A stretch of DNA of 48,272 nt from a bacterium (GTDB lineage Bacteria; Patescibacteriota; Minisyncoccia; Phycocordibacterales; GWA1-40-21): positions 1 through 48,272 of the forward strand of contig JBAXQJ010000006.1 of assembly GCA_037131755.1 (NCBI GenBank), in the 5' to 3' direction. Under the pieces are notes generated by a model. That model ran no database searches. It was not told the origin of the DNA and saw nothing but the letters and a program-made list of their open reading frames with translations. Below, one piece after another: positions 1,807 through 45,087 of this stretch (position 1 is its first letter; each line of letters starts with the position of its first letter). The translations under genes were made by a program, and so were the position numbers.

Positions 1807-3030
1807 CTACAATATACCTTCTACACTCTTCGCAATTTCTTCCATTTCGTCGGTCTTTACTACCAAGATTTTGGTTTTCGATCCAGGTGCGGATAATTCT
1901 ACTTCTACTCCCTCGGATTTATTATTCAATTCCATATCCAAATCGATGCCGAGGAATTGCAGACCCTCGCAGATGCGGCCACGCATTATAAACGATCGCT
2001 CCCCGACCGTTCCGGCAAAGATGAGTAGATCGATACCACCCAGGACAGCCGACATTGAACCGATGTATTTTTTCAACCTTTCGGCGTAGATATCCAAAGC
2101 CAGAGATGAATCCTTGTCGCCAGTTTTTTCCGCCTCAATCAAGTCCCGCACGTCACCGCTTTTGCCCGACAGACCGAGCAAGCCGCATTTTTCATTAAAA
2201 TATTCCTCCAACTTACTCATTCGCATACCAAGCTTGTCCGCCAGATAAATAACGGCTCCGGGATCGATTTCGCCCACCCTGGTGGCCATTACCAGGCCAT
2301 CAAGTGGCGTAAAGCCCATCGAGGTATCCATACTCTTGCCGTCTTTTACGGCGGTCACGCTGACCCCGCCGCCAATATGACAAACTACCACTTTGGCTGG
2401 CAAGGCACCGAGGATTTTCTCCGCCTGAGAAATGACCGACTGGATTGAGATGCCGTGATAGCCGAATTTTTGCAAACCCAAGTCCCGGCTGTCCTGAATC
2501 GGAATCGCGTAGAGTTTGGCCTTGGCCGGAATGGTATTATGAAAGACGCTATCTGAGACTCCGATCATCACGACATCGTCGCCAAAAGTCTTCTTGAACA
2601 TTTTGATTTCTTCGAGCGCCGGTCCTAAATGAAGAGGGACTTTTTCCAACGCTAATTTGGCCATTTTCAAAAATTCCTTATCAATTATCCGGTGAGTCAA
2701 GAAATACTGCCCCGGCGCAACGATCCTGATTCCCGCGGCATCAATCCCTTCTTTGGAAGCGATTATTTTCTTGTTGATAAGTCCGCCCAAAACACGTTCG
2801 ATAGAGCGTTCAAAAACCCGTCTGGAAATCGGTGACTTTTCAGAGGCTTCGCCAATTTTTTCCGTAACGATATAAACCCCGTTTTCCATTTCAAAGTGGG
2901 CGTTGTAGATCTTTTTGCCACCTTCGAAGACTGAATACTTTTTGGACGCACTGCCGGTGTTGATGATCAAAATCTTCTTTGGCCCATCGGTCTTGGTTTT
3001 TTCTTTTTTCTCAGATTTAAATATTTTCAT
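1807..3030 (-). CDS. ackA: Acetate kinase
   Basis: ILIINTGSASKK, KFGYHGIS, CHIGGGVS, DTSMGFTPLDG and FAGTVGE motifs. Confidence 0.93.
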   Translation of the reverse strand: MKIFKSEKKEKTKTDGPKKILIINTGSASKKYSVFEGGKKIYNAHFEMENGVYIVTEKIGEASEKSPISRRVFERSIERVLGGLINKKIIASKEGIDAAGIRIVAPGQYFLTHRIIDKEFLKMAKLALEKVPLHLGPALEEIKMFKKTFGDDVVMIGVSDSVFHNTIPAKAKLYAIPIQDSRDLGLQKFGYHGISIQSVISQAEKILGALPAKVVVCHIGGGVSVTAVKDGKSMDTSMGFTPLDGLVMATRVGEIDPGAVIYLADKLGMRMSKLEEYFNEKCGLLGLSGKSGDVRDLIEAEKTGDKDSSLALDIYAERLKKYIGSMSAVLGGIDLLIFAGTVGERSFIMRGRICEGLQFLGIDLDMELNNKSEGVEVELSAPGSKTKILVVKTDEMEEIAKSVEGIL

Positions 3031-3046
3031 ATTATTTATTATACTG

Positions 3047-3075
3047 GATTCCCGCCTCCGCGGGAATGACAGAAT
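3047..3075. repeat. dRS3/REP-like palindrome, copy 1
   Basis: gattcccgcctccgcgggaatgacagaat; second copy at 45299-45327. Confidence 0.7.
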
Positions 3076-3108
3076 CCAGCCCTTCAGTCCACCTAATAAG
3101 CTAAGAGA

Positions 3109-5487
3109 CTACCTCCCTTTCCCCGACCACACCCAATTCTCGATTTCTTCCGGATCGATTCCACTTTCAATGATATAAGTTTTGTGTTGCTTCATCTTTT
3201 CCTCGTAAATAGCTATCTTTTCTTCCGCCACAAATCTCTCTATCACATGGGCATCAGCCATTTTGCGCCAAGCCTCGATTGCCAAGTCATAACGGCTGGT
3301 CTTATTACGCATATGCAAGTCGAGCGGAGTTGAAGTCGAACCGGTCTCTATATAGCCATGAACGGAAAAACGGCCGTAGGTATTCTCGTAATCAAACAAA
3401 GACTGCTTGAGCGTTTCCGGATAGCCATGGAAATTAAAGATGACTGGCTTGTCGGCCGTAAAATATTTTTCAAATTCAGACAATGGCATCTTGCCGGTCG
3501 AACTGCCGATCGTATTTGGCGACAGTTCGGAAATATTTACCAGTCGCACCTTAATGCTTGGAGTTTCCGCTTTAATTATTTCAATTGCCGCCAGAGCCTC
3601 TTTGGTGGTGTACTGTCCAGTCGTTCCAATGACAATATCTGGTGTCGCATCTGAGGCGAAGGTCCAAGTCATAATACCCTGCTTGACCTGGGTTTCCGCC
3701 TCGGCCGGAGTCAGCCAGCGCGGTTCGACAGTCTTTTCGGCGACGATAATATTTATCTCATTTTTAGCCGCCAAGCATCTCTTGATTGTCGCCAAAGCCG
3801 AATTGCCATCGGGTGGAAAAAAGACGCTGACAAAATTATTGTGTTTTAACAAAAGGGTCTCAATGAAGCCGGGATTCTGATGGGAAAAGCCATTGTGTTC
3901 CTGGCGCCAACCGGAAGAAGTGAGAATATAATTGAAGGATGGAATATCGCCGCGCCAAGAAACGTCGCGGGCGACTTTCAAAAACTTGGAATACTGATCA
4001 GCCATGCTAGCCACAATCTGGACAAAGGCTTCATAGGAACAAAATACGCCGTTGCGGCCAGTCAAAACATAGCCCTGCAACAAACCCTGCATCGAGTGTT
4101 CCGATAGCATCTCCATCACCCGACCGCTGTGCGCCAAATCGGTATCCCATTTTTCAATCGGACCGGCAAAGACTCGCTTGGTCGTCTGAAAAACTTCGTC
4201 TAATTTGTTTGAATAAGTCTCATCGGGCGACATCAGACGGAAATTCTTCTTTTCGGCGTTCAACTTGAACACATCATTCAAATAGGCACCGATCCGTCGC
4301 ATCGAGCTCGAGCCGATGGTACCGGGAACGGTGGCGTCTTCCATAAAGACTTTTTCATCCGGCAAACGCAAATCTTGGCTTTTATCTTTCAGACCGTTCG
4401 CGATCGGATTGTCGCCCATTCGCAGATTTTCCGGCGGAACTAGATCCAAAATATCCTGATCAAAGCCCTTTTGTTGGTCAAAGAGTTCTTCAAATTTGTA
4501 AGAGCGCAACCATTTATCAAGTGCCTTGAGCTGTACCTTGTCTTTCTTCATTTCCTTGCCAACGACCTGGTGCGATTGTGAGTTACCCTCATATTTGATG
4601 CCTTCCATTTTCTTGATGCCGGTCCAGCCCTTGGGCGAACGGAAGACGATCATCGGGAAACGAGGATAATTGTCACGGTTCAAAGTGCCTTCGCGAGCCG
4701 CTTTTTGGATGCTTCGAATGTCTTCGTAACATTTTTCCAAAGTCGCCGCCATGGTCTCATAGACCTTTTCTTCGGACTTGGCGGTTGTGCCGGCATCCAC
4801 AATATGCGGTTCGTAACCATAACCAGTAAACAAAGCTTTCAAATCTTTGTTGTTCATTCGGCCGAAAAAGGTCGGGCCAGAAATCTTATAGCCGTTCAAG
4901 TGCAATATCGGCAAAACCGCGCCGTCATTTGTCGGGTCGATCAACTTACTCAAATGCCAAGAGGTAGCGAGCGGTCCGGTCTCCGCCTCACCGTCACCGA
5001 CGAGACAAGCCACAACCAGATCGGGATTATCTAAAACTGCTCCATAGGAAGTAGACAGAGAATAACCAAGCTCGCCGCCCTCGAGAATCACACCCGGTGT
5101 TGCTGGTGAAGCGTGGCTGGGGAAACCATAAGGCCAGCTGAATTTTTTTGAGATATACGAGATGCCTTTTTCATCGCGAGTCGCTTCGGGATAATACTTG
5201 CCGAGGGTTCCTTCCATAAAAACGTTGGCCTGCAAAGCGGGAAAACCATGACCAGGACCCAAGGTAAAAAGCATGTTCGCCTGCTTGTTGATAATCAGAT
5301 TGTTCAACTGAGCGTATACAAAATTGATCCCCGGACAGGTACCCCAGTGGCCGAGTAGCCTTGGCTTGATATTGTCAAAAGTCAGCGGATTGTCTAATAA
5401 ATGATTTTCTTTTAAATAGATCTGCGTCGCTGTCAGATAATTTGTGGCACGCACAAACTTCTTGATTTTTTCAATTTGTGTAGACAT
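3109..5487 (-). CDS. xfp: Phosphoketolase (XFP family)
   Basis: LLGHWGTCPG, EGGELGY, GDGEAETGP, MLSEH and HNGFSHQNPG motifs; start placed at the ATG of MSTQ (5487). Confidence 0.95.
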   Translation of the reverse strand: MSTQIEKIKKFVRATNYLTATQIYLKENHLLDNPLTFDNIKPRLLGHWGTCPGINFVYAQLNNLIINKQANMLFTLGPGHGFPALQANVFMEGTLGKYYPEATRDEKGISYISKKFSWPYGFPSHASPATPGVILEGGELGYSLSTSYGAVLDNPDLVVACLVGDGEAETGPLATSWHLSKLIDPTNDGAVLPILHLNGYKISGPTFFGRMNNKDLKALFTGYGYEPHIVDAGTTAKSEEKVYETMAATLEKCYEDIRSIQKAAREGTLNRDNYPRFPMIVFRSPKGWTGIKKMEGIKYEGNSQSHQVVGKEMKKDKVQLKALDKWLRSYKFEELFDQQKGFDQDILDLVPPENLRMGDNPIANGLKDKSQDLRLPDEKVFMEDATVPGTIGSSSMRRIGAYLNDVFKLNAEKKNFRLMSPDETYSNKLDEVFQTTKRVFAGPIEKWDTDLAHSGRVMEMLSEHSMQGLLQGYVLTGRNGVFCSYEAFVQIVASMADQYSKFLKVARDVSWRGDIPSFNYILTSSGWRQEHNGFSHQNPGFIETLLLKHNNFVSVFFPPDGNSALATIKRCLAAKNEINIIVAEKTVEPRWLTPAEAETQVKQGIMTWTFASDATPDIVIGTTGQYTTKEALAAIEIIKAETPSIKVRLVNISELSPNTIGSSTGKMPLSEFEKYFTADKPVIFNFHGYPETLKQSLFDYENTYGRFSVHGYIETGSTSTPLDLHMRNKTSRYDLAIEAWRKMADAHVIERFVAEEKIAIYEEKMKQHKTYIIESGIDPEEIENWVWSGKGR

Positions 5488-28928: not shown

Positions 28929-31900
28929 TTATCTTTCGTTATCTATTTCATTATCTTTCAAGAGTTCAACGTCGAGCGCTAGTCCTCGCAAATTGTTGAG
29001 GAGCACATTGAACGAAGCTGGAATATTCGGTTGTTTGATTCTTTCACCCTTCACGATCGAATCAAAGGCGGAAGTACGTCCGACGATATCGTCAGATTTG
29101 ATAGTGAGCATTTCTCGCAAGGTATGAGCGGCACCGTGTCCAAGCAAAGCCCAGACTTCCATTTCTCCGAATCTCTGACCTCCACCCTGGGCACGACCGC
29201 CCAAAGGCTGCTGAGTGATGAGAGAGTACGGTCCGATGGAGCGCATGTGGATCTTGTCTTCCACTTCATGGTGCAGTTTCAAGATGTACATATAACCGAC
29301 GGCGACTTCCTGATTGAAAGCTTCGCCAGTTCGGCCATCGTATAATTTCATTTTGCCATTGGTCTGGAAACCAGCCTTCTTGAGTTCATCGCGGATTTCA
29401 TCGTCGGTCGCACCGGCAAATGGCGGAACGATCGCCTGATAGTTCAAAGTGTTCGCAGCGAGACCCAAGTGCAATTCCAAAATCTGTCCGAGGTTCATAC
29501 GGGAAGGCACACCGAGCGGTGTCAAAATGATATCCACCGGTCGGCCATCTGGCATGTATGGCATGTCTTCTTCGGGCAATATTCTCGAGATAACACCTTT
29601 GTTTCCATGTCGTCCGGACAGCTTGTCTCCAACGGAGATGCTTCGGAGTTCGGCCACTTCGATATGAATTCTCTTGATGATACCGCTTTCCAATTTGTCG
29701 CCCTTTTCCCGTGAGAAAACTTTGACGGAGACGATTCGGCCCTTCTTGCCACCTTCCAATCGCTTGGAAGTATCTTTCACGTCTCGAGCTTTCTCGCCGA
29801 AGATGGATCGCAACAATCTTTCTTCCGGAGTCAATTGAGTCTCGCCTTTTGGCGTAATCTTACCGACAATAATGTCGCCTGGTCGGACTTCGGCACCCAC
29901 GCGGATAATTCCCTCTTCATCAAGGTTTTTCAATTTTCCTTCACCAACGTTTGGAATATCATGAGTGGTGACTTCCGGTCCAAGCTTGGTATCGCGGACG
30001 TTCACGACGAATTCCTCCATGTGAATAGAGGTGAATCGGCTATCTTTCACCAATCGTTCTGACAAAATGATCGCGTCTTCGTAGTTGTTTCCTGACCAAG
30101 ACATAAAGGCAATGAGCATGTTCTGACCAATCGCCATCTGGCCGCGGTCAGACGATGAGGTATCGGCCAACAATTCGCCTTTCTTTACTTTCTGATTCAG
30201 GCTGACCACCGGTCGCTGATGGAAAACAGTAAAGCTGTTGGTTCGAGAAAACTGGACCAGATTGTATTCTGTTTCCTTGCCTTTTTCATTTTCAACAATA
30301 ATCTTTTTGGAATCAACATAGGTAACCGTTCCGGCTTCATCAGAGTAGATCAATCGGCCGGTATAGCGAGCGGCTTCTTCTTCGATACCGGTAGCAACGA
30401 GCGGAGCCTGTGGCTGCAAACATGGCACGGCCTGCTTCTGCATGTTCGAACCCATGAGCGCTCGGTTCGCATCGTCATGGTTCAAGAATGGGATCATCGA
30501 GGTAGCAATGGAGAACGCCTGGTTTGTCGCGACATCCATATAATCCACTTCTTCGCGCATAACGACCGTCGGCTCGCCATTGACACGGACTTCCACTTCA
30601 TCATCGATGATTTTTCCTTTCTCATCAGTGTGGGTGGCCGCATGAGCAATTTTATAATTTTCTTCTTCTAACGCATTCAAATATTTTATTTCCGAAGTCA
30701 CCACGCCGTTTTTCACTTTCGCATAAGGCGTTTCGATCATGCCAAAGTCGTTGACTCGAGCATAAATCGAGAGGCGCAAGATCAAACCGATGTTTGGACC
30801 TTCTGGAGTATGGATCGGACAGACTCGGCCGTAGTGCGATGGATGGACGTCACGAACTTCAAAGCCGGCTCGTTCACGAGTCAAACCGCCGGGTCCGAGA
30901 GCTGAGAGAGTTCGCAAATGCTCGATTTCCTGCAAGACATTTTCTTGCTGCATGAATTGGGACAACTGGTTGGTCGTAAAGAATTCCTTGATTCGGGCCT
31001 GGAGCGGTCGAGGCGAGACAAAGTTGACCGGCAAAGTGACGTCTGGATCGACAGTCGACATTCGGTCCTGAATGTTTCTCTTCATCTGCGACATACCGAC
31101 ACGGATCTTGGTCTGGAACAATTCGCCGACAAAACGGACGCGTCGCGAGCCAAGGTGGTCGATATCGTCTTCCATCGCGTCAGCATCATGGTTCAATTCA
31201 ATCACTTTGTTGACAATGGTCATCACGTCGTCAAAGTTTACGGTTTTTCGTTCCAATTCCTTTTCGTCCATTGACTTGCCAAAACGCTTGTTGAATCGGA
31301 AACGTCCGACTTTGGAAATATCATAGCGATCCTCACTGAATATGCCCTTGATGAACTCGCGGGCGTTTTCAGCGGTCGCCAAGTCACCGTCACGCAAACG
31401 CTTGTGGATTTCAATATAGGACTCATCGGCCGTTTTTGCATGATCTTTGGCCAGGTTGAGTTCCATGGCCTTCTTGGCCAACTCGTTGTCCTTGAAATAT
31501 TCGAGGATCTGTTTGTCGGTACCGCCCAAGACTCGGAGAAGCGAAGTGATGGAGAATTTTCGCTTTTTGTCGATTTTGACGTAGACAATGTCATCAGCAT
31601 CGGATTCGATTTCAATCCAGGCACCGCGGGAAGGGATGATTTTGGCGCCAAAGTATTTCTTGCCCTTGATCTCGTTGCCAGTAAAGAACATACCGAATGA
31701 TCGGGCCAGCTGTGGCACAATAACGCGCTCAATACCGTTGATAACAAAAGTACCGTGATCGGTCATGAGCGGCAGATCAGCCAAGAAGATTTCCTGTTCT
31801 TTTTCGGTATTCAAAATCTTGTTTTTCAGCTTGACCTTGGCCTTCAATTGTCCCTCGTAGGACATTTTGTTGTCCTTGGCATAATGCTCATTGTATTTAG

Positions 31901-40968: not shown

Positions 40969-42189
40969 TTAAATATTTTTTACTTTATTAATCGCAATTA
41001 TATCACGCTCGTTTAAAAAAATCTTGCCATAATCGTCCGCAATGTGGATAAACTTTTTAAAATCCGGGGACAAACGGTCGGTCAGGATTTTGCGCCGAAG
41101 CCGGTACGTTTGGAAATTGGCCGTCATACCCAAATGCGAGTTCAGGCTCGCCATGAATTTATCCTGGTGTTCCTCGGGAAACTTATCTCCGCTCTCCTTC
41201 AAAACTCCGTTCCAATACTGGATATTATTGTAAAGATTGCCCTTGGTCCCGTTACGGATATACATGCGATAAGGCTTTATGATTGAGCCCAAAAAAGGCA
41301 CGCCTTTTGTAAAATGCTGGAGGTATATTTTCTTGGGATGCAAATCCAGGGACAGCTCGTCTTTCAGATATTTCCTGATGATCGGGATGACCGATTTTAA
41401 ATATTCTTTATCTTGGTGGACAATCACCATGTCGTCCACATAACGCCCGTAATACCGGCAACCGAGCCGGTGTTTTATAAAATGGTCAAAATCATCCAGG
41501 TAAATATTCCCGAATAATTGCGATGTCAGATTGCCGATCGGCAAGCCTTTGTTTACAGGTGCTCCAAACAGGCTCTTGGACCTTGGCAAACCGCTCCAGT
41601 CTTCCTTTACTCCCTTGATTACGCAATTCTTGGTCGGGTCGTGAAAGATGATTTTATGAATAAGAGCCAAAAGCCAAACGCGGTCAAACTTTTTATTATC
41701 CTTGGAATTGTTTATCTTTGTTTCCAATTTCTGGTATAAGATATTCTTGTCGATGGACATAAAATAGCCCTTGATATCCAATTTCAGGACGTAGCAATCT
41801 TGCTTGTAATTCAAGGAACAGGAACGGATGAAGTGATCCAATCTTTTGATGCCATAAGACGTCCCCTTGCCTCGCTGGCAGCTGTAACTGTCATTTACGA
41901 ACAAGCGCTCAAAAATCCGATTGATATAGTTAAAAATCAGATGATGAATGATCCGGTCCCGAAAATCGGCAGCAAAAATCTCCCTCTGCAAAGGCTTGAA
42001 ACAGATAAAACAAATGCTTCGCCCGACTTCGTACGAGCCGTCGGCCAGCTCCCGACCAAGCTTGAACAAATTGGTCTCGTAATTCAATTCAAAAACCATC
42101 GCGCTTACGGTCTGGCGCTTATGCTTGCGCGCATCATAATAAGCCTTGAATAAGTCCACTAAAATTCTTTTATACTCCATTGATTTCAA
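40969..42189 (-). CDS. DGR reverse transcriptase
   Basis: FRDRIIHH, LKLDIKGYF, GLPIGNLTSQ (DGR-type SQ), RYVDD; next to TR and Avd. Confidence 0.95.
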   Translation of the reverse strand: MKSMEYKRILVDLFKAYYDARKHKRQTVSAMVFELNYETNLFKLGRELADGSYEVGRSICFICFKPLQREIFAADFRDRIIHHLIFNYINRIFERLFVNDSYSCQRGKGTSYGIKRLDHFIRSCSLNYKQDCYVLKLDIKGYFMSIDKNILYQKLETKINNSKDNKKFDRVWLLALIHKIIFHDPTKNCVIKGVKEDWSGLPRSKSLFGAPVNKGLPIGNLTSQLFGNIYLDDFDHFIKHRLGCRYYGRYVDDMVIVHQDKEYLKSVIPIIRKYLKDELSLDLHPKKIYLQHFTKGVPFLGSIIKPYRMYIRNGTKGNLYNNIQYWNGVLKESGDKFPEEHQDKFMASLNSHLGMTANFQTYRLRRKILTDRLSPDFKKFIHIADDYGKIFLNERDIIAINKVKNI

Positions 42190-42194
42190 TTAAC

Positions 42195-42383
42195 CAGTTC
42201 TTGAGGCAACGCACGGAAAAGCCGTAAGACTTAGAGTTCGTGTTCCGGTTGACAGTCGCGTAGCCGGAATTCAGGTTACGGTTCCAAGCGGAAGACCCGC
42301 TCTGCAACGACTCCCAAAAGTTGCCGTTCGTCCCTAAGTTAGCAAAAGTGCCATTAGTCTCGCGGTCGCCTGCAAGCAAGCCC
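42195..42383 (-). repeat. DGR template repeat (TR)
   Basis: 189-bp match to VR (43589-43777); rich in AAC codons; 14 of 15 mismatches at TR adenines. Confidence 0.95.
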
Positions 42384-42576
42384 TGGCGCAAAAATAATCG
42401 CTTGATTCCTTTTATAGACCTGACGGAAAATAAAAAGTGCCTAGCTTCCAGGTAAGATTACTTCCGTTAGGAAACTACGCAATATTCCTCGTAGGCACAG
42501 CCCACGAGAGGATTATTGAACTGATTTGTGGCACACCCGTCTGCGCCGTAGCGCGAGACAGTTCCGGCCAAAGTAT

Positions 42577-42918
42577 TCACGCGCTGGATTTTTGCCAGGC
42601 GGCCAACTGTTTGGAGACCGATTCTATTTTCTCATTGAGAACGATGAACTTTTCCAGGTTGATCTGTTTGAGGTCTTTTATCAGCCGCAGATACAGGCGG
42701 ATCACTTCCAGATTTTCCCGAGCTGACTGCAACAGAGTGTGTTTGGACTGACTGCTGTTCGCCCGATAAATATTCGTTATCATCTCTATTGTCTCCTTTT
42801 TAAGGCTTTCTCCTACCGTGTATTTGTATTCCTGACTGAAATGTTTTGTGTAGTTGAATATGTCCACCAGAAAATCATAACTTACTTTATATACGGGTAA
42901 TGTATTATAAATAGCCAT
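42577..42918 (-). CDS. avd: DGR accessory protein Avd (four-helix bundle)
   Basis: LPVYKVSYD...FSQEYKYTVG...LRLIKDL...SKQLAAW; 113 aa; directly upstream of TR. Confidence 0.85.
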   Translation of the reverse strand: MAIYNTLPVYKVSYDFLVDIFNYTKHFSQEYKYTVGESLKKETIEMITNIYRANSSQSKHTLLQSARENLEVIRLYLRLIKDLKQINLEKFIVLNEKIESVSKQLAAWQKSSA

Positions 42919-43010
42919 ATTGATTGATAGTAATTTTAAGTTGTTTCATGACTTTATATTGCTATTTTTACTGCTCTTGACAATCAATGCCGACTTGCTA
43001 TACTTAAAGT

Positions 43011-43095
43011 CTAAATGGCTTCGGCCTCGCCTTCTCGCAAGAGAAGGAGGAAAATCAAAAAATCATCCTATCAACCGGGTGATTTTTTGTTTGAT
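43011..43095 (+). ncRNA. Candidate antisense sRNA convergent on the toxin gene
   Basis: Promoter TTGACA (42977) -16nt- TATACT (42999) with TG extension; UUCG and GCAA tetraloop hairpins; terminator-like stem over the toxin stop codon. Confidence 0.5.
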
Positions 43096-43452
43096 TGTTT
43101 GAAATTGTAGTTCATCAATGGTGCATATTTTATTCTCCAACCTTTTGGAGTCAATCAGTCTTATTTGTGACAAAATGACTTTTCTGATTATTTTGTCACC
43201 TAAATCTATATCCTGATAAAATTTCCCTTGTTTCAATTTAGTGGTCAGAGGAACGCAAAGAAAGACATTCTTGCTAAAACCTTTGATGATGAGGATAGGT
43301 CGAGAAAATTCCTCGCCCTTGCCATCTTGTTCGAAACCGATATTTATCCCCAATGAACACCACCACACTTCCCGTTCGTGATAAAATTTATCTTCATTCT
43401 TATGATGAATGACTTTTTTACTTTCATTCCACTTGTCAAAATCTTTTTGCAT
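43063..43452 (-). CDS. PemK/MazF-like endoribonuclease toxin
   Basis: EREVWWCSLGINIGFEQDGK, RPILII, VPLTT, SQIRLIDSKRL. Confidence 0.88.
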   Translation of the reverse strand: MQKDFDKWNESKKVIHHKNEDKFYHEREVWWCSLGINIGFEQDGKGEEFSRPILIIKGFSKNVFLCVPLTTKLKQGKFYQDIDLGDKIIRKVILSQIRLIDSKRLENKICTIDELQFQTIKQKITRLIG

Positions 43453-43587
43453 AACAACATTCTACCAAATCTCCTCAAACTTATCCACGCTTAGAAAAAG
43501 GAATTCAATCCTAAACCAACCACTTTTTGCTATTTTTAAAATTAAGAAAAAATTAAGAAATAGTCAAATAGTCAAATTGTCGGATTA

Positions 43588-44439
43588 TCAGTTCTTGAGG
43601 CAACGCACGGAAAAGCCGAAAGACTTAGAGAGCGTGCCCCGGCCGACAGTCGCGTAGCCGGAATTCAGGGTACGGTCCCAAGCGGAAGACCCGCTCTGCA
43701 ACGACTCCCAAAAGAGCCCGTTCGCCCCTAAGTAAGCAAAAGTGCCACTAGTCTCGCGGTCGCCTGCAAGCAAGCCCCTGAACAATCCCACGACATTTTT
43801 CAAAGTCGTACCCTCGTTGGTACCGCGCCAGCCGGTAGTGACGGAATCATAAGGAAAATCCGTAGCACAAGAACCGGAGGTACAAGTAGTCCTTTCCAAA
43901 AGGGTAAATTCGTTATGGGTTGGTATATGCCAACCGGTCGGGCAGATACCTTGGGCGCCTTCGGTGACCGAACCGCCCATCGCTTGATCCCATTGGTATA
44001 GTCCGCCATAGGTGGTACAGCTGCCTTCGTTGTCGCTATAGCAATATTTTTGAATCGTGGACGTGCTGGTATTCTGAGTGACGCTTCCATTGATCCTGGT
44101 TCCGACATTTAAGTTCTGCCCCATCCAGCATTGCGCGCCGATAAGGACAGTGGTGTAAGTCTTGCCGTCTCGAGTATCCAAAAGTGGCGATCCGCAAGCC
44201 CAGGAAGAGGCGGCGGAGAGAAACACTTGGCCGTTGACCGTATCCACAGTGACATTTACCGCCGAAGCTATTTTGGTGGAGTCGTTATAGCTGTCCGTAA
44301 CCGTGAGCGATGTCAGGGCGTAAACAATGCCGATGCCGATTAAGACCGACAGCGTGCCACCGGCAATGACATAAAACAAAGTCTTCGGCAGGAGATTGAA
44401 GCTGGATATTTTTTTATGCAAATATTTTATTGCGTTCAT
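43588..44439 (-). CDS. DGR target: membrane-anchored Fibrobacter succinogenes major-domain (FISUMP, CLec-like) protein
   Basis: TM helix; DTRDGKTYTTVLIGAQCWMGQNL, YGGLYQW, GICPTGWHIP, GFSVRCLKN; VR at the 3' end. Confidence 0.9.
   Translation of the reverse strand: MNAIKYLHKKISSFNLLPKTLFYVIAGGTLSVLIGIGIVYALTSLTVTDSYNDSTKIASAVNVTVDTVNGQVFLSAASSWACGSPLLDTRDGKTYTTVLIGAQCWMGQNLNVGTRINGSVTQNTSTSTIQKYCYSDNEGSCTTYGGLYQWDQAMGGSVTEGAQGICPTGWHIPTHNEFTLLERTTCTSGSCATDFPYDSVTTGWRGTNEGTTLKNVVGLFRGLLAGDRETSGTFAYLGANGLFWESLQSGSSAWDRTLNSGYATVGRGTLSKSFGFSVRCLKN
43589..43777 (-). repeat. DGR variable repeat (VR)
   Basis: Encodes the last ~62 aa of the target; 10 aa differ from the translated TR. Confidence 0.95.
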
Positions 44440-44589
44440 TTTTCTTATAATTTTTATGCATTTATAAAACCTTTCCCTAAGTATACCAATATTTGCCTAC
44501 TGCCCGCAACTCTTTTTCGTTTCGATTCCGATTGAAACTGTGGATAACTGATACTTCCGAGTGTCATCCCCGAGAAAGTATGGATGACG

Positions 44590-44630
44590 GACTTGGCCGG
44601 GTTTTTGTCTGACAAAAACCCGGCCAAGTC
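44590..44630. repeat. Perfect 20-bp inverted repeat with 1-nt spacer
   Basis: gacttggccgggtttttgtc-t-gacaaaaacccggccaagtc. Confidence 0.85.
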
Positions 44631-44718
44631 ATCATTTCACAACCAGTTGACTCTAAACATAAAATTTGGTATAATCAAAGAAAGTAAAAACCTCGCCTCT
44701 GGCGAAGAAAGGATCTTT

Positions 44719-45087
44719 ATGAAGTGCCATTATCTGCTTTTGGTTGTTGCTTTGGGTTGTTTTGTTCACAGTGGTTGTGACAACGACCGCAACGCCGGCT
44801 ATCACGAAAACGACGGATACTACTACGGGAATACGGATTACCCGCGGTATATCTCTGTCGAGGTCAACAACTATTCGTCCGGCATTGCCGATGTTTATAT
44901 CGGCGACGCCTATGTCGGAAGTCTAGACTCGGGGCGATCGACTTCTTTCTCCAAGAGCCTGTATGGCGGAGAAAAGTTGCGGCTCAAGTTTGTGATCGCT
45001 GGCAGCAAGGAAGTGTACCTGAACTTTGACGATGATTACCAGAATTATCACGTCAACCTGTACAACGACCACGCTGAACATTTCTAA
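44719..45087 (+). CDS. Putative lipoprotein
   Basis: MKCHYLLLVVALGCFVHSGC signal with a lipobox-like end; SD GAAAGGA; promoter TTGACT...TATAAT. Confidence 0.65.
   Translation: MKCHYLLLVVALGCFVHSGCDNDRNAGYHENDGYYYGNTDYPRYISVEVNNYSSGIADVYIGDAYVGSLDSGRSTSFSKSLYGGEKLRLKFVIAGSKEVYLNFDDDYQNYHVNLYNDHAEHF

Follow-up and report, generated by a model that had tools for sequence, protein, structure and literature searches.

A conserved structured RNA gene facing the 3' end of a solitary PemK/MazF-family toxin gene in Patescibacteria

The locus

The DNA analysed here (the window) is a stretch of 48,272 nucleotides from a bacterium of the phylum Patescibacteriota (GTDB lineage Minisyncoccia; Phycocordibacterales; GWA1-40-21), namely positions 1 to 48,272 of the forward strand of contig JBAXQJ010000006.1 in GenBank assembly GCA_037131755.1. 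Its minus strand carries a gene for a 129-aa PemK/MazF-family endoribonuclease (43063..43452; Pfam PF02452, E 2.7e-11), and facing the 3' end of this toxin gene on the plus strand is a predicted small RNA (sRNA) gene with its own promoter. An earlier interpretation, made by a model from the letters of the window (the sequence-only reading), proposed that this RNA controls the toxin. Here we describe a computational follow-up of that proposal.

The sRNA promoter (42977..43004, plus strand) consists of a TTGACA -35 box at 42977-42982, a 16-nt spacer and an extended -10 element, TGcTATACT, at 42996-43004. A consensus scan and reading of 42300-44200 gave it 11 of 12 consensus matches (TATACT at 42999-43004), with the additional TG at 42996-42997. 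The predicted RNA is approximately 85-90 nt long (43011..43098, plus strand), presumably starting near 43011 and ending in the U-run at 43090-43098. Sequence reading and the consensus scan both place two hairpins in its 5' part, GGC-UUCG-GCC at 43017..43026 (hairpin 1) and CCUUCUC-GCAA-GAGAAGG at 43030..43047 (hairpin 2). Hairpin 3 (43056..43089) is a 13-bp A-tract/U-tract stem followed by a U-rich tail, an inverted repeat predicted to be able to terminate transcripts of both strands; it covers the toxin stop codon at 43063-43065, and its 3' arm on the plus strand is formed by the last toxin codons and that stop codon. The promoter and all three hairpins thus lie exactly where the sequence-only reading had put them.

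Folding of the plus-strand RNA (43009-43100) gives the three-hairpin structure at -31.3 kcal/mol (z -4.0), which none of 200 shuffled sequences equalled. The window provides a moderate case for an sRNA gene and does not settle the question alone, because a stable fold is predicted for the minus strand too (-26.3 kcal/mol, z -3.4) and promoter-like sites are common in the region (12, vs 8.0 +/- 3.0 in shuffles). It is the recurrence of promoter and hairpins beside about 150 homologous toxin genes that, judged from sequence, puts the element beyond chance. A covariance model built from homologous loci (R1, described below) matches the window at 43011-43053 with 28.1 bits (E 3.3e-08). No Rfam family fits the element: the best overlapping match, Phe_leader, scores 27.1 bits vs a gathering score of 55 (E 0.25).

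Other identities for the RNA were considered and rejected. It is not a repeated element, as it occurs in a single copy in its own genome. An encoded peptide was also rejected: the only candidate, a 31-aa open reading frame (ORF) at 43015-43110, has its ATG conserved in only 31 of 70 relatives (GTG in another 9), and changes in hairpin length shift the frame. No tandem repeat array of the type III kind was found; the only short repeats (AAAATTAAGAA twice and AAATAGTC three times, at 43538-43581) sit in an unrelated spacer between the toxin promoter and the variable repeat of the surrounding retroelement. Three metatranscriptome runs of the same sample, available as contigs, gave no match to 42560-43600, which says nothing about expression.

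Conservation beside homologous toxin genes

Of 1139 candidate toxin relatives (90% clusters), 1129 matched at E <= 0.001, and nearly all of those with names are from Patescibacteria metagenome bins. We aligned 27 relatives (alignment A1) and took 80 loci, with toxins 44-72% identical, from a species-genome collection (genome_contigs). In the 150 nt past each stop codon of these genome loci, the same opposite-strand element is found almost everywhere. The hairpin 1 pattern alone occurs in 72 of the 80, usually 26-46 nt past the stop. The covariance model R1, built on 12 sequences, has a full-length opposite-strand match at the toxin 3' end in 73 of the 80, with one match (L022) lying 215 nt away from the toxin. 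Three loci could not be assessed (L062 is masked, and nothing follows the gene in L055 and L077). In three others without an R1 match (L063, L086 and L088) the element is there, but has variant loops or a read-through ORF. The element is therefore present in 76 of 77 assessable genome loci. The sole exception, L067, has a toxin that lacks its C-terminus.

Metagenome contigs gave a similar result. R1 matches directly after the toxin gene in 64 of 80 such loci, and four of the 80 end within 90 nt of the gene, leaving 76 assessable. Ten of the 12 remaining loci were inspected and all carry the element with a variant hairpin 1, while L155 and L156, which share the coordinates of L154, fell outside the inspection; the total is 74 of 76. 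The sequence-only reading had stated that a motif not conserved beside homologues would count against it, and on these counts the motif has been kept.

An even sample of 151 genomes from the phylum extends the comparison to more divergent toxins. The toxin profile found 26 places in 17 of these genomes and R1, under stricter filters, matched beside five of the 26. We took 18 of the other places, one of which (L109) ends at a contig edge, and left out three weak or broken matches. The layout, kept in 16 of the 17 assessable divergent homologues, begins with a strong promoter and an A/U-rich tail, which are followed by one hairpin of 3-4 bp and another that is GC-rich. In this group the GC-rich hairpin runs straight into a U-run at the stop codon, and the hairpin sequences differ.

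At every RNA-bearing locus the position of the RNA gene is strictly convergent with the toxin gene and abuts its stop codon. Where one locus holds extra toxin copies, each copy has its own RNA (L017, L019, L025, L029 and L083). An intact-looking RNA gene has also been kept beside an internally deleted toxin in L084 (RNA at 3719-3767) and beside a toxin gene with a premature stop (L065), and orphan copies occur: one at L079 (5310-5353), and two full-length R1 matches with no toxin ORF beside them (G076:C63:3402-3448 and G063:C1:27121-27161). As far as sequence can tell, this pattern of decay fits a toxin-antitoxin pair, because the RNA outlives broken toxins and the only assessable genome toxin without an RNA is truncated. 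As a separate observation, the bins of four loci (L015, L039, L046 and L072) are labelled Gammaproteobacteria, Chitinophagaceae, Bacteroidia or Nanoarchaeota, which could reflect either mis-binning or transfer beyond Patescibacteria.

Anatomy of the RNA

The anatomy of the element was counted in a set of 70 (the window plus 69 loci), from which L017, L037 and L065 were left out due to a displaced stop codon. Promoter counts use 69 of these, as L064 has a short flank. In 62 of the 69, exactly 12 nt separate the end of the -10 box from hairpin 1. Spacers measure 16 nt (42 promoters), 17 nt (22) or 18 nt (5), a TG precedes the -10 box in 48, and 60 promoters agree with the consensus at 9 or more of its 12 positions. 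The sequence of hairpin 1 is GGCUUCGGCC in 43 of the 70 and GCCUUCGGGC in 23; in the larger covariance-model alignment described below, its middle pair is G-C in 50 and C-G in 24, and none is broken. The 5' tail, hairpin 1 and the UCG that follows it are conserved in sequence across toxins that are only ~50% identical.

Hairpin 2 is present in all 70 with 53 distinct 5' arms, and stems of at least 5 bp occur in 64 (shuffle mean 11). Its loop is of the GNRA or YNCG type in 55 of the 70 when read on the RNA strand vs 3 of the 70 on the other strand, the mean of 200 shuffles being 0.31. The sequence-only reading had noted that the stable loops read correctly on the plus strand only, and this holds across the family. 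In 52 of the 70, the final codons of the toxin pair with the non-coding side in an equivalent of hairpin 3, with an A-tract, GC core and U-tract (median z -5.2).

Aligning the whole RNA with MAFFT and folding it with RNAalifold found hairpin 1 only, because hairpin 2 varies in length. We therefore replaced that approach with an alignment-free scan, which gave the hairpin counts above, and a covariance-model alignment (A4; 85 matches, including weak partial ones) on which covariation was counted. In A4, 99.0% of cells are paired vs 69.2% in shuffles, all nine helix 2 pairs change on both sides, and the covariation score is 0.413 vs 0.100, a value reached by none of 500 shuffles; slid partners score 0.03-0.06. 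A4 is fitted to the given structure and so leans towards it; the alignment-free hairpin counts are independent of it. The sequence-only reading had proposed looking for covarying hairpins beside homologues, and both helices covary. We conclude from the comparative evidence that the plus-strand element is a genuine gene for a structured RNA, conserved, driven by a promoter and tied to the toxin.

The toxin and the lack of a protein antitoxin

The PF02452 (PemK_toxin) match covers residues 27-127 of the toxin with 44.1 bits vs a cut-off of 23.1. The NCBIfam MazF equivalog scores only 22.9 vs 120, so the protein is not an E. coli MazF orthologue. An AlphaFold (AF2) model (pLDDT 72.6) has its best Foldseek matches in MoxT, MazF and EndoA (TM 0.6-0.77, probability 1.00), and a profile search of solved structures likewise found EndoA, MoxT/PemK and MazF nearest; ToxN is absent from the best matches of both searches. 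The modelled fold is thus a MazF-like, SH3-like barrel. Arg51, in an RP motif that aligns with the RP arginine of EndoA, is invariant across the 27 aligned sequences, and Thr70/Thr71 (PLTTK) are conserved in at least 90% of them. We take the arginine and the threonine or serine of MazF to have catalytic roles, and by its residues the window toxin looks active. Arg28 and Thr51 are the residues named in a MazF-related abstract (PMC8086154). Outside the Pfam domain is an N-terminal extension of 26 residues (KDFDKWNxxKK), in which K3, W8 and K12 are invariant and which is present in all relatives seen, including those from Campylobacter. The gene is single copy in its genome (726,665 bases, 98.5% complete).

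The toxin gene has a promoter-like site of its own (43459..43487, minus strand: TGGATA, a 17-nt spacer and TGgTAGAAT), whose -10 box ends 6 nt before the ATG, and it has no Shine-Dalgarno sequence. Among 66 relatives, TANNNT occurs 5-9 nt before the start codon in 33 (24 of them with TG) vs 4-12 at shifted control positions, and an SD-like 4-mer precedes the toxin start in only 4. The toxin mRNA is therefore probably leaderless and made from a weak promoter. An extended -10 box 5-9 nt before the ATG without a Shine-Dalgarno sequence is common in these toxin genes, and leaderless mRNAs seem to be the rule in the family. Within the toxin coding sequence (CDS) lies a further promoter-like site (43127-43154, minus strand: TTGACT, 16 nt, TAAAAT; 10/12), which faces the 3' end of the gene and the avd gene beyond it and may be due to chance or be an internal promoter.

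Searches for a protein partner were negative. An all-vs-all BLAST of ORFs ending near the toxin start found no recurrent family upstream of PemK, the largest cluster covering three loci, and the upstream neighbours vary in size and strand. A MazE/AbrB-type domain (PF04014) is absent from the 98.5% complete genome. The PADLOC library of defence systems gave no match. That no antitoxin ORF adjoins the toxin, as originally noted, thus holds in the loci examined, and the 31-aa ORF overlapping the RNA gene does not change this. On sequence evidence, the toxin is solitary.

A precedent on Campylobacterota plasmids

A tblastn search for more distant relatives found only toxins 32-40% identical, in 45 plasmid records of Campylobacter, Helicobacter and Nitratiruptor and in seven records of Campylobacter phages or prophages. 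One homologue is on the C. jejuni 81-176 plasmid pVir at 30634-31038 (by position, old tag CJJ81176_pVir0047), where its source name is only 'PemK/MazF family toxin'. It is 40% identical to the window toxin over 102 residues, and both share an N-terminal FDxWNxxKK extension. Its 3' flank contains a convergent TGATATAAT promoter with an extended -10 and hairpins. Table S12 of Dugar 2013 (PMC3656092) lists an sRNA, CJpv3, on the pVir minus strand from 31119 to 31043 (77 nt) with the remark 'Detected on Northern blot'. These coordinates coincide with the convergent element at the pVir toxin, ending 5 nt from its stop codon. The same layout is found on Nitratiruptor and Helicobacter suis plasmids and in prophage CJIE4-3.

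The window module therefore has the two traits of the pVir0047/CJpv3 type, an N-extended PemK protein and a convergent sRNA. The two differ in that CJpv3 and the window RNA have no sequence similarity, in that CJpv3 seems not to enter the CDS while the window RNA is predicted to, and in their hosts, which are Campylobacterota plasmids and prophages in one case and a small-genome bacterium in the other. The sequence-only reading had not recognised the arrangement as described. The CJpv3 entry in the Dugar 2013 table, a Northern-verified convergent RNA at a homologue, weakens that claim; for the Patescibacteria family, our searches of abstracts found no description.

According to two papers citing Shen et al. 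2016, pVir carries a type I system, cjrA/cjpT, whose antitoxin is an antisense sRNA, CjrA. CjpT may be the pVir PemK protein, but a gene near another pVir sRNA, CJpv2, is an alternative candidate for the locus; PMC7826846, PMC8167048 and PMC11768034 are silent on the matter. With the Campylobacter homologues, a system that can be grown in culture is at hand, and expression of its RNA is already established.

Comparison with known systems

Convergent 3' overlap is known from several type I systems, including par/Fst (RNA I-RNA II, pAD1) and, in Bacillus subtilis, txpA/RatA and bsrG/SR4. Like them, the window module has a convergent sRNA with a strong promoter, a 3' overlap with a shared bidirectional terminator and no protein antitoxin, and RNase III is available, being encoded in the genome. 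As is typical of type I, the RNA has a separate promoter and, by sequence, complementarity to the toxin mRNA (overlap in 52 of 70); the homologue whose transcription is documented is that on pVir. The small hydrophobic peptide toxin of those systems, however, is here a 129-aa soluble MazF-fold RNase. The window toxin mRNA also differs in being probably leaderless, with no 5' untranslated region or Shine-Dalgarno sequence to occlude, and the window RNA in having a conserved structured 5' domain outside the overlap.

Compared with MazEF/PemIK, the module shares the PF02452 family, the fold and the conserved Arg and Thr. It lacks the adjacent protein antitoxin that defines type II, as no locus has an upstream MazE/PemI and the genome has no MazE domain, and it adds an N-terminal helix and a conserved sRNA.

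The fold of ToxN, the toxin of a type III system, is Kid/MazF-like, and like the type III systems ToxIN, CptIN and TenpIN (Blower 2012, PMC3401426) the window module pairs an endoribonuclease toxin with an RNA and has no protein partner. Those systems have an upstream repeat array on the toxin's strand and a ToxN/AbiQ, CptN or TenpN toxin. The window RNA is instead without repeats, downstream and on the opposite strand, its toxin groups with canonical MazF, and PADLOC finds nothing. In E. coli SymE/SymR (PMC1891008), a cis antisense RNA controls a protein of the MazEF world rather than a membrane peptide. SymE is related to the antitoxin MazE rather than to MazF, and SymR overlaps the 5' end of its mRNA rather than the 3' end.

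Proposed function and alternatives

Seen through its sequences, the overall pattern is the signature of an antitoxin, because the RNA promoter is strong and that of the toxin weak, the RNA outlives broken toxins, and no intact toxin gene lacks the RNA among the 77 assessable genome loci. The mode of action that we favour, to which we give an even balance of belief and doubt, is antisense pairing through the 3' overlap, i.e., type I-like logic applied to a toxin of a type II family. From 5' to 3', the RNA would comprise a short tail, the tiny UUCG hairpin, the GC-rich GNRA hairpin, an A-rich linker and a terminator hairpin with a 3' arm complementary to the final codons of the toxin. Its near-consensus extended -10 promoter would supply it in excess, while the toxin would be made from a weak one, and it would base-pair over ~30-50 nt with the toxin mRNA, whose 3' end is complementary to it. 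RNase III would act on this duplex and, by cutting it, strip the toxin mRNA of its protective terminator and so keep toxin synthesis low, and the two 5' hairpins would mainly stabilise the RNA. Antisense action is favoured because the position is convergent and abutting everywhere, the terminator is shared in 52 of 70 and RNase III is present. Of the original proposal that a structured RNA controls the toxin, the conserved, promoter-driven RNA gene tied to the toxin has stood up well; that the protein is toxic, that the RNA neutralises it and that RNase III takes part are steps that we infer. A second pairing site at the 5' end of the toxin mRNA was rejected: the non-overlapping part of the RNA pairs with the first 70 nt of its cognate mRNA no better than with non-cognate ones (-16.35 vs -16.07 kcal/mol, better in 30 of 70, Wilcoxon p 0.81).

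Several points weigh against antisense action as an antitoxin mechanism. To our knowledge, the toxins of known type I systems are small membrane peptides, not RNases. We infer transcription of the sRNA in the window organism from its sequence. One divergent toxin gene that looks intact (L093) has no such RNA. Overlap with the coding region is not universal: 18 of the 70 close relatives lack the stop-straddling hairpin. Their RNA, like that of the divergent group and of pVir, apparently extends no further than the toxin stop codon. Antisense action there would therefore need toxin mRNAs that read through into the RNA gene. The sequence conservation of the 5' tail, hairpin 1 and UCG is not, as we read the alignments, required by antisense pairing, and the basic and aromatic N-terminal helix (K3, W8 and K12) hints at direct RNA binding. 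That a 3-bp stem needs a C(UUCG)G loop may, however, explain the sequence conservation.

The last of these points also feed a type III-like alternative, in which the 5' domain of the RNA binds the toxin, perhaps via the N-terminal helix, and blocks its active site, the overlap being merely a compact way to terminate. We consider this unlikely, while noting what it would account for: the sequence-conserved 5' tail, hairpin 1 and UCG lie outside the overlap, all sRNA-associated homologues, Campylobacter ones among them, have the N-terminal extension with its three invariant residues, overlap of the RNA with the CDS is slight in divergent clades and pVir, and the 5' part of the RNA shows no cognate-specific pairing with the 5' end of the toxin mRNA (p 0.81). 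However, from clade to clade the hairpins vary widely in sequence, tandem repeats are absent, the toxin does not resemble ToxN (its best Foldseek matches are all MazF, MoxT or EndoA), and PADLOC is without a match. The RNA is also never upstream on the toxin's strand, as it is in ToxIN, and the strict convergent abutment argues that overlap matters. A further idea is that the RNA is a regulator rather than an antitoxin, with convergent transcription and a shared terminator tuning or insulating the toxin and its neighbours, and with the protein either held in check by low leaderless translation or N-terminal self-inhibition, or not toxic. The terminator can indeed work in both directions, the toxin promoter is weak with a probably leaderless mRNA, and PMC8749433 describes an antisense RNA, aMEF, that tunes mazEF rather than neutralising it. 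Yet a plain terminator needs neither a strong promoter at a fixed distance nor two covarying hairpins, and an RNA that outlives broken toxin genes fits dependence better than tuning, so this idea seems to us improbable. We give very little credence to a hitch-hiker, i.e., an unrelated sRNA or mobile-element end that travels with the toxin gene, or a part of the diversity-generating retroelement (DGR) described below. Two orphan copies without a toxin gene would suit it, as would the location of the module in a DGR here and beside DGR genes in five close relatives. No reverse transcriptase (RT), Avd or target homologue occurs at the 80 genome loci (flanks <=4 kb), yet the RNA is present in 76 of 77; its position relative to the toxin stop is fixed, and it is single copy in its own genome.

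A broader interpretation, which goes beyond the antisense reading and about which we are doubtful, is a large and so far unrecognised RNA-controlled class of MazF toxins, which would be the prevailing form in Patescibacteria and would extend to Campylobacterota plasmids and prophages. A single-copy structured RNA would replace MazE by both binding the N-terminal helix and pairing with the mRNA, a hybrid of types I and III without repeats. The module would be recruited time and again to the 3' edge of DGRs and might serve them for addiction or as a guard.

Diversity-generating retroelement context

The PemK-RNA pair lies inside a DGR cassette (40969-44439), between the target gene and avd, which the sequence-only reading overlooked. 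All parts of the cassette are on the minus strand: a target gene with a Fib_succ_major domain (43588..44439, by Pfam; variable repeat [VR] 43589-43777), the accessory gene bAvd (42577..42918; PF22296, E 3.9e-15), a 189-nt template repeat (TR) at 42195..42383 that is 92% identical to the variable repeat, and the reverse transcriptase gene (40969..42189; RVT_1, E 1e-17). At 17 of the positions where the repeats differ, the template has an adenine (replaced by G in 9, by C in 4 and by T in 4), and the other 11 differences were, by reading rather than computation, within ~20 unrelated flank bases that were also compared. By these signs, the cassette looks complete and active. Since the cassette is interrupted by the toxin-RNA module, the avd-TR-RT part would have to be driven by a separate promoter within 42919-43055, which would overlap the sRNA gene on the other strand.

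A reverse transcriptase gene is also found just upstream of the toxin gene in five of the closest metagenome relatives (L110 and L113-L116, toxins 70-88% identical). In L110, a template repeat at 294-383 and a variable repeat at 2669-2758 differ at 12 positions, all at template adenines, and the toxin gene (2854-3240) starts ~100 nt after the variable repeat. Compared with the window, its RT is only 31% identical, its target gene is unrelated and its gene order differs. Across the five, the module is at the edge of a DGR, directly after a variable repeat or after the RT, with RTs only ~30% identical and a differing gene order. Taken together, these sequences suggest repeated recruitment of the module to DGRs in this clade. 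DGRs were rejected as the general context of the module, since RT, Avd and target homologues were found at none of the 80 genome loci within flanks of up to 4 kb; as far as these flanks tell, the link is confined to one clade.

Two further repeats were seen near these cassettes. L110 contains a 72-nt direct repeat (3-74 and 2780-2851, 79% identical), with one copy at the start of the contig and the other immediately behind the variable repeat; it may be the 3' flank of a second variable repeat. In the window, GACTTGGCCGGGTTTTTGTC and its complement form a perfect inverted repeat of 20 nt around a 1-nt loop (44590-44630), at the start of an ORF without a Pfam match (44584-45087).

Significance

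No description of this family emerged from literature searches at the level of abstracts, which covered antisense RNA of MazF in Patescibacteria, PemK RNA motifs, toxin-antitoxin systems of the Candidate Phyla Radiation, and RNA antitoxins of MazF, whether type III or convergent. The nearest published thing is the pVir sRNA CJpv3, possibly together with cjrA/cjpT. What appears to be new, on sequence grounds, is RNA-controlled toxin-antitoxin logic applied to a canonical MazF toxin, and an RNA motif that is widespread in Patescibacteria. This motif is clean, strongly covarying, promoter-defined and absent from Rfam.

In databases, the genes are annotated as 'type II toxin-antitoxin system PemK/MazF family toxin' though they have no protein antitoxin. 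If the RNA is the antitoxin, approximately a thousand sequence clusters would be misclassified as orphan type II toxins, and one branch of MazF, a toxin that stands in textbooks for type II, would turn out to be under RNA control. The recurrent place of the module beside DGRs suggests how selfish modules may stabilise hypervariation cassettes. For Patescibacteria, which have tiny genomes and few known regulators, the RNA would offer a handle on RNA-based regulation.

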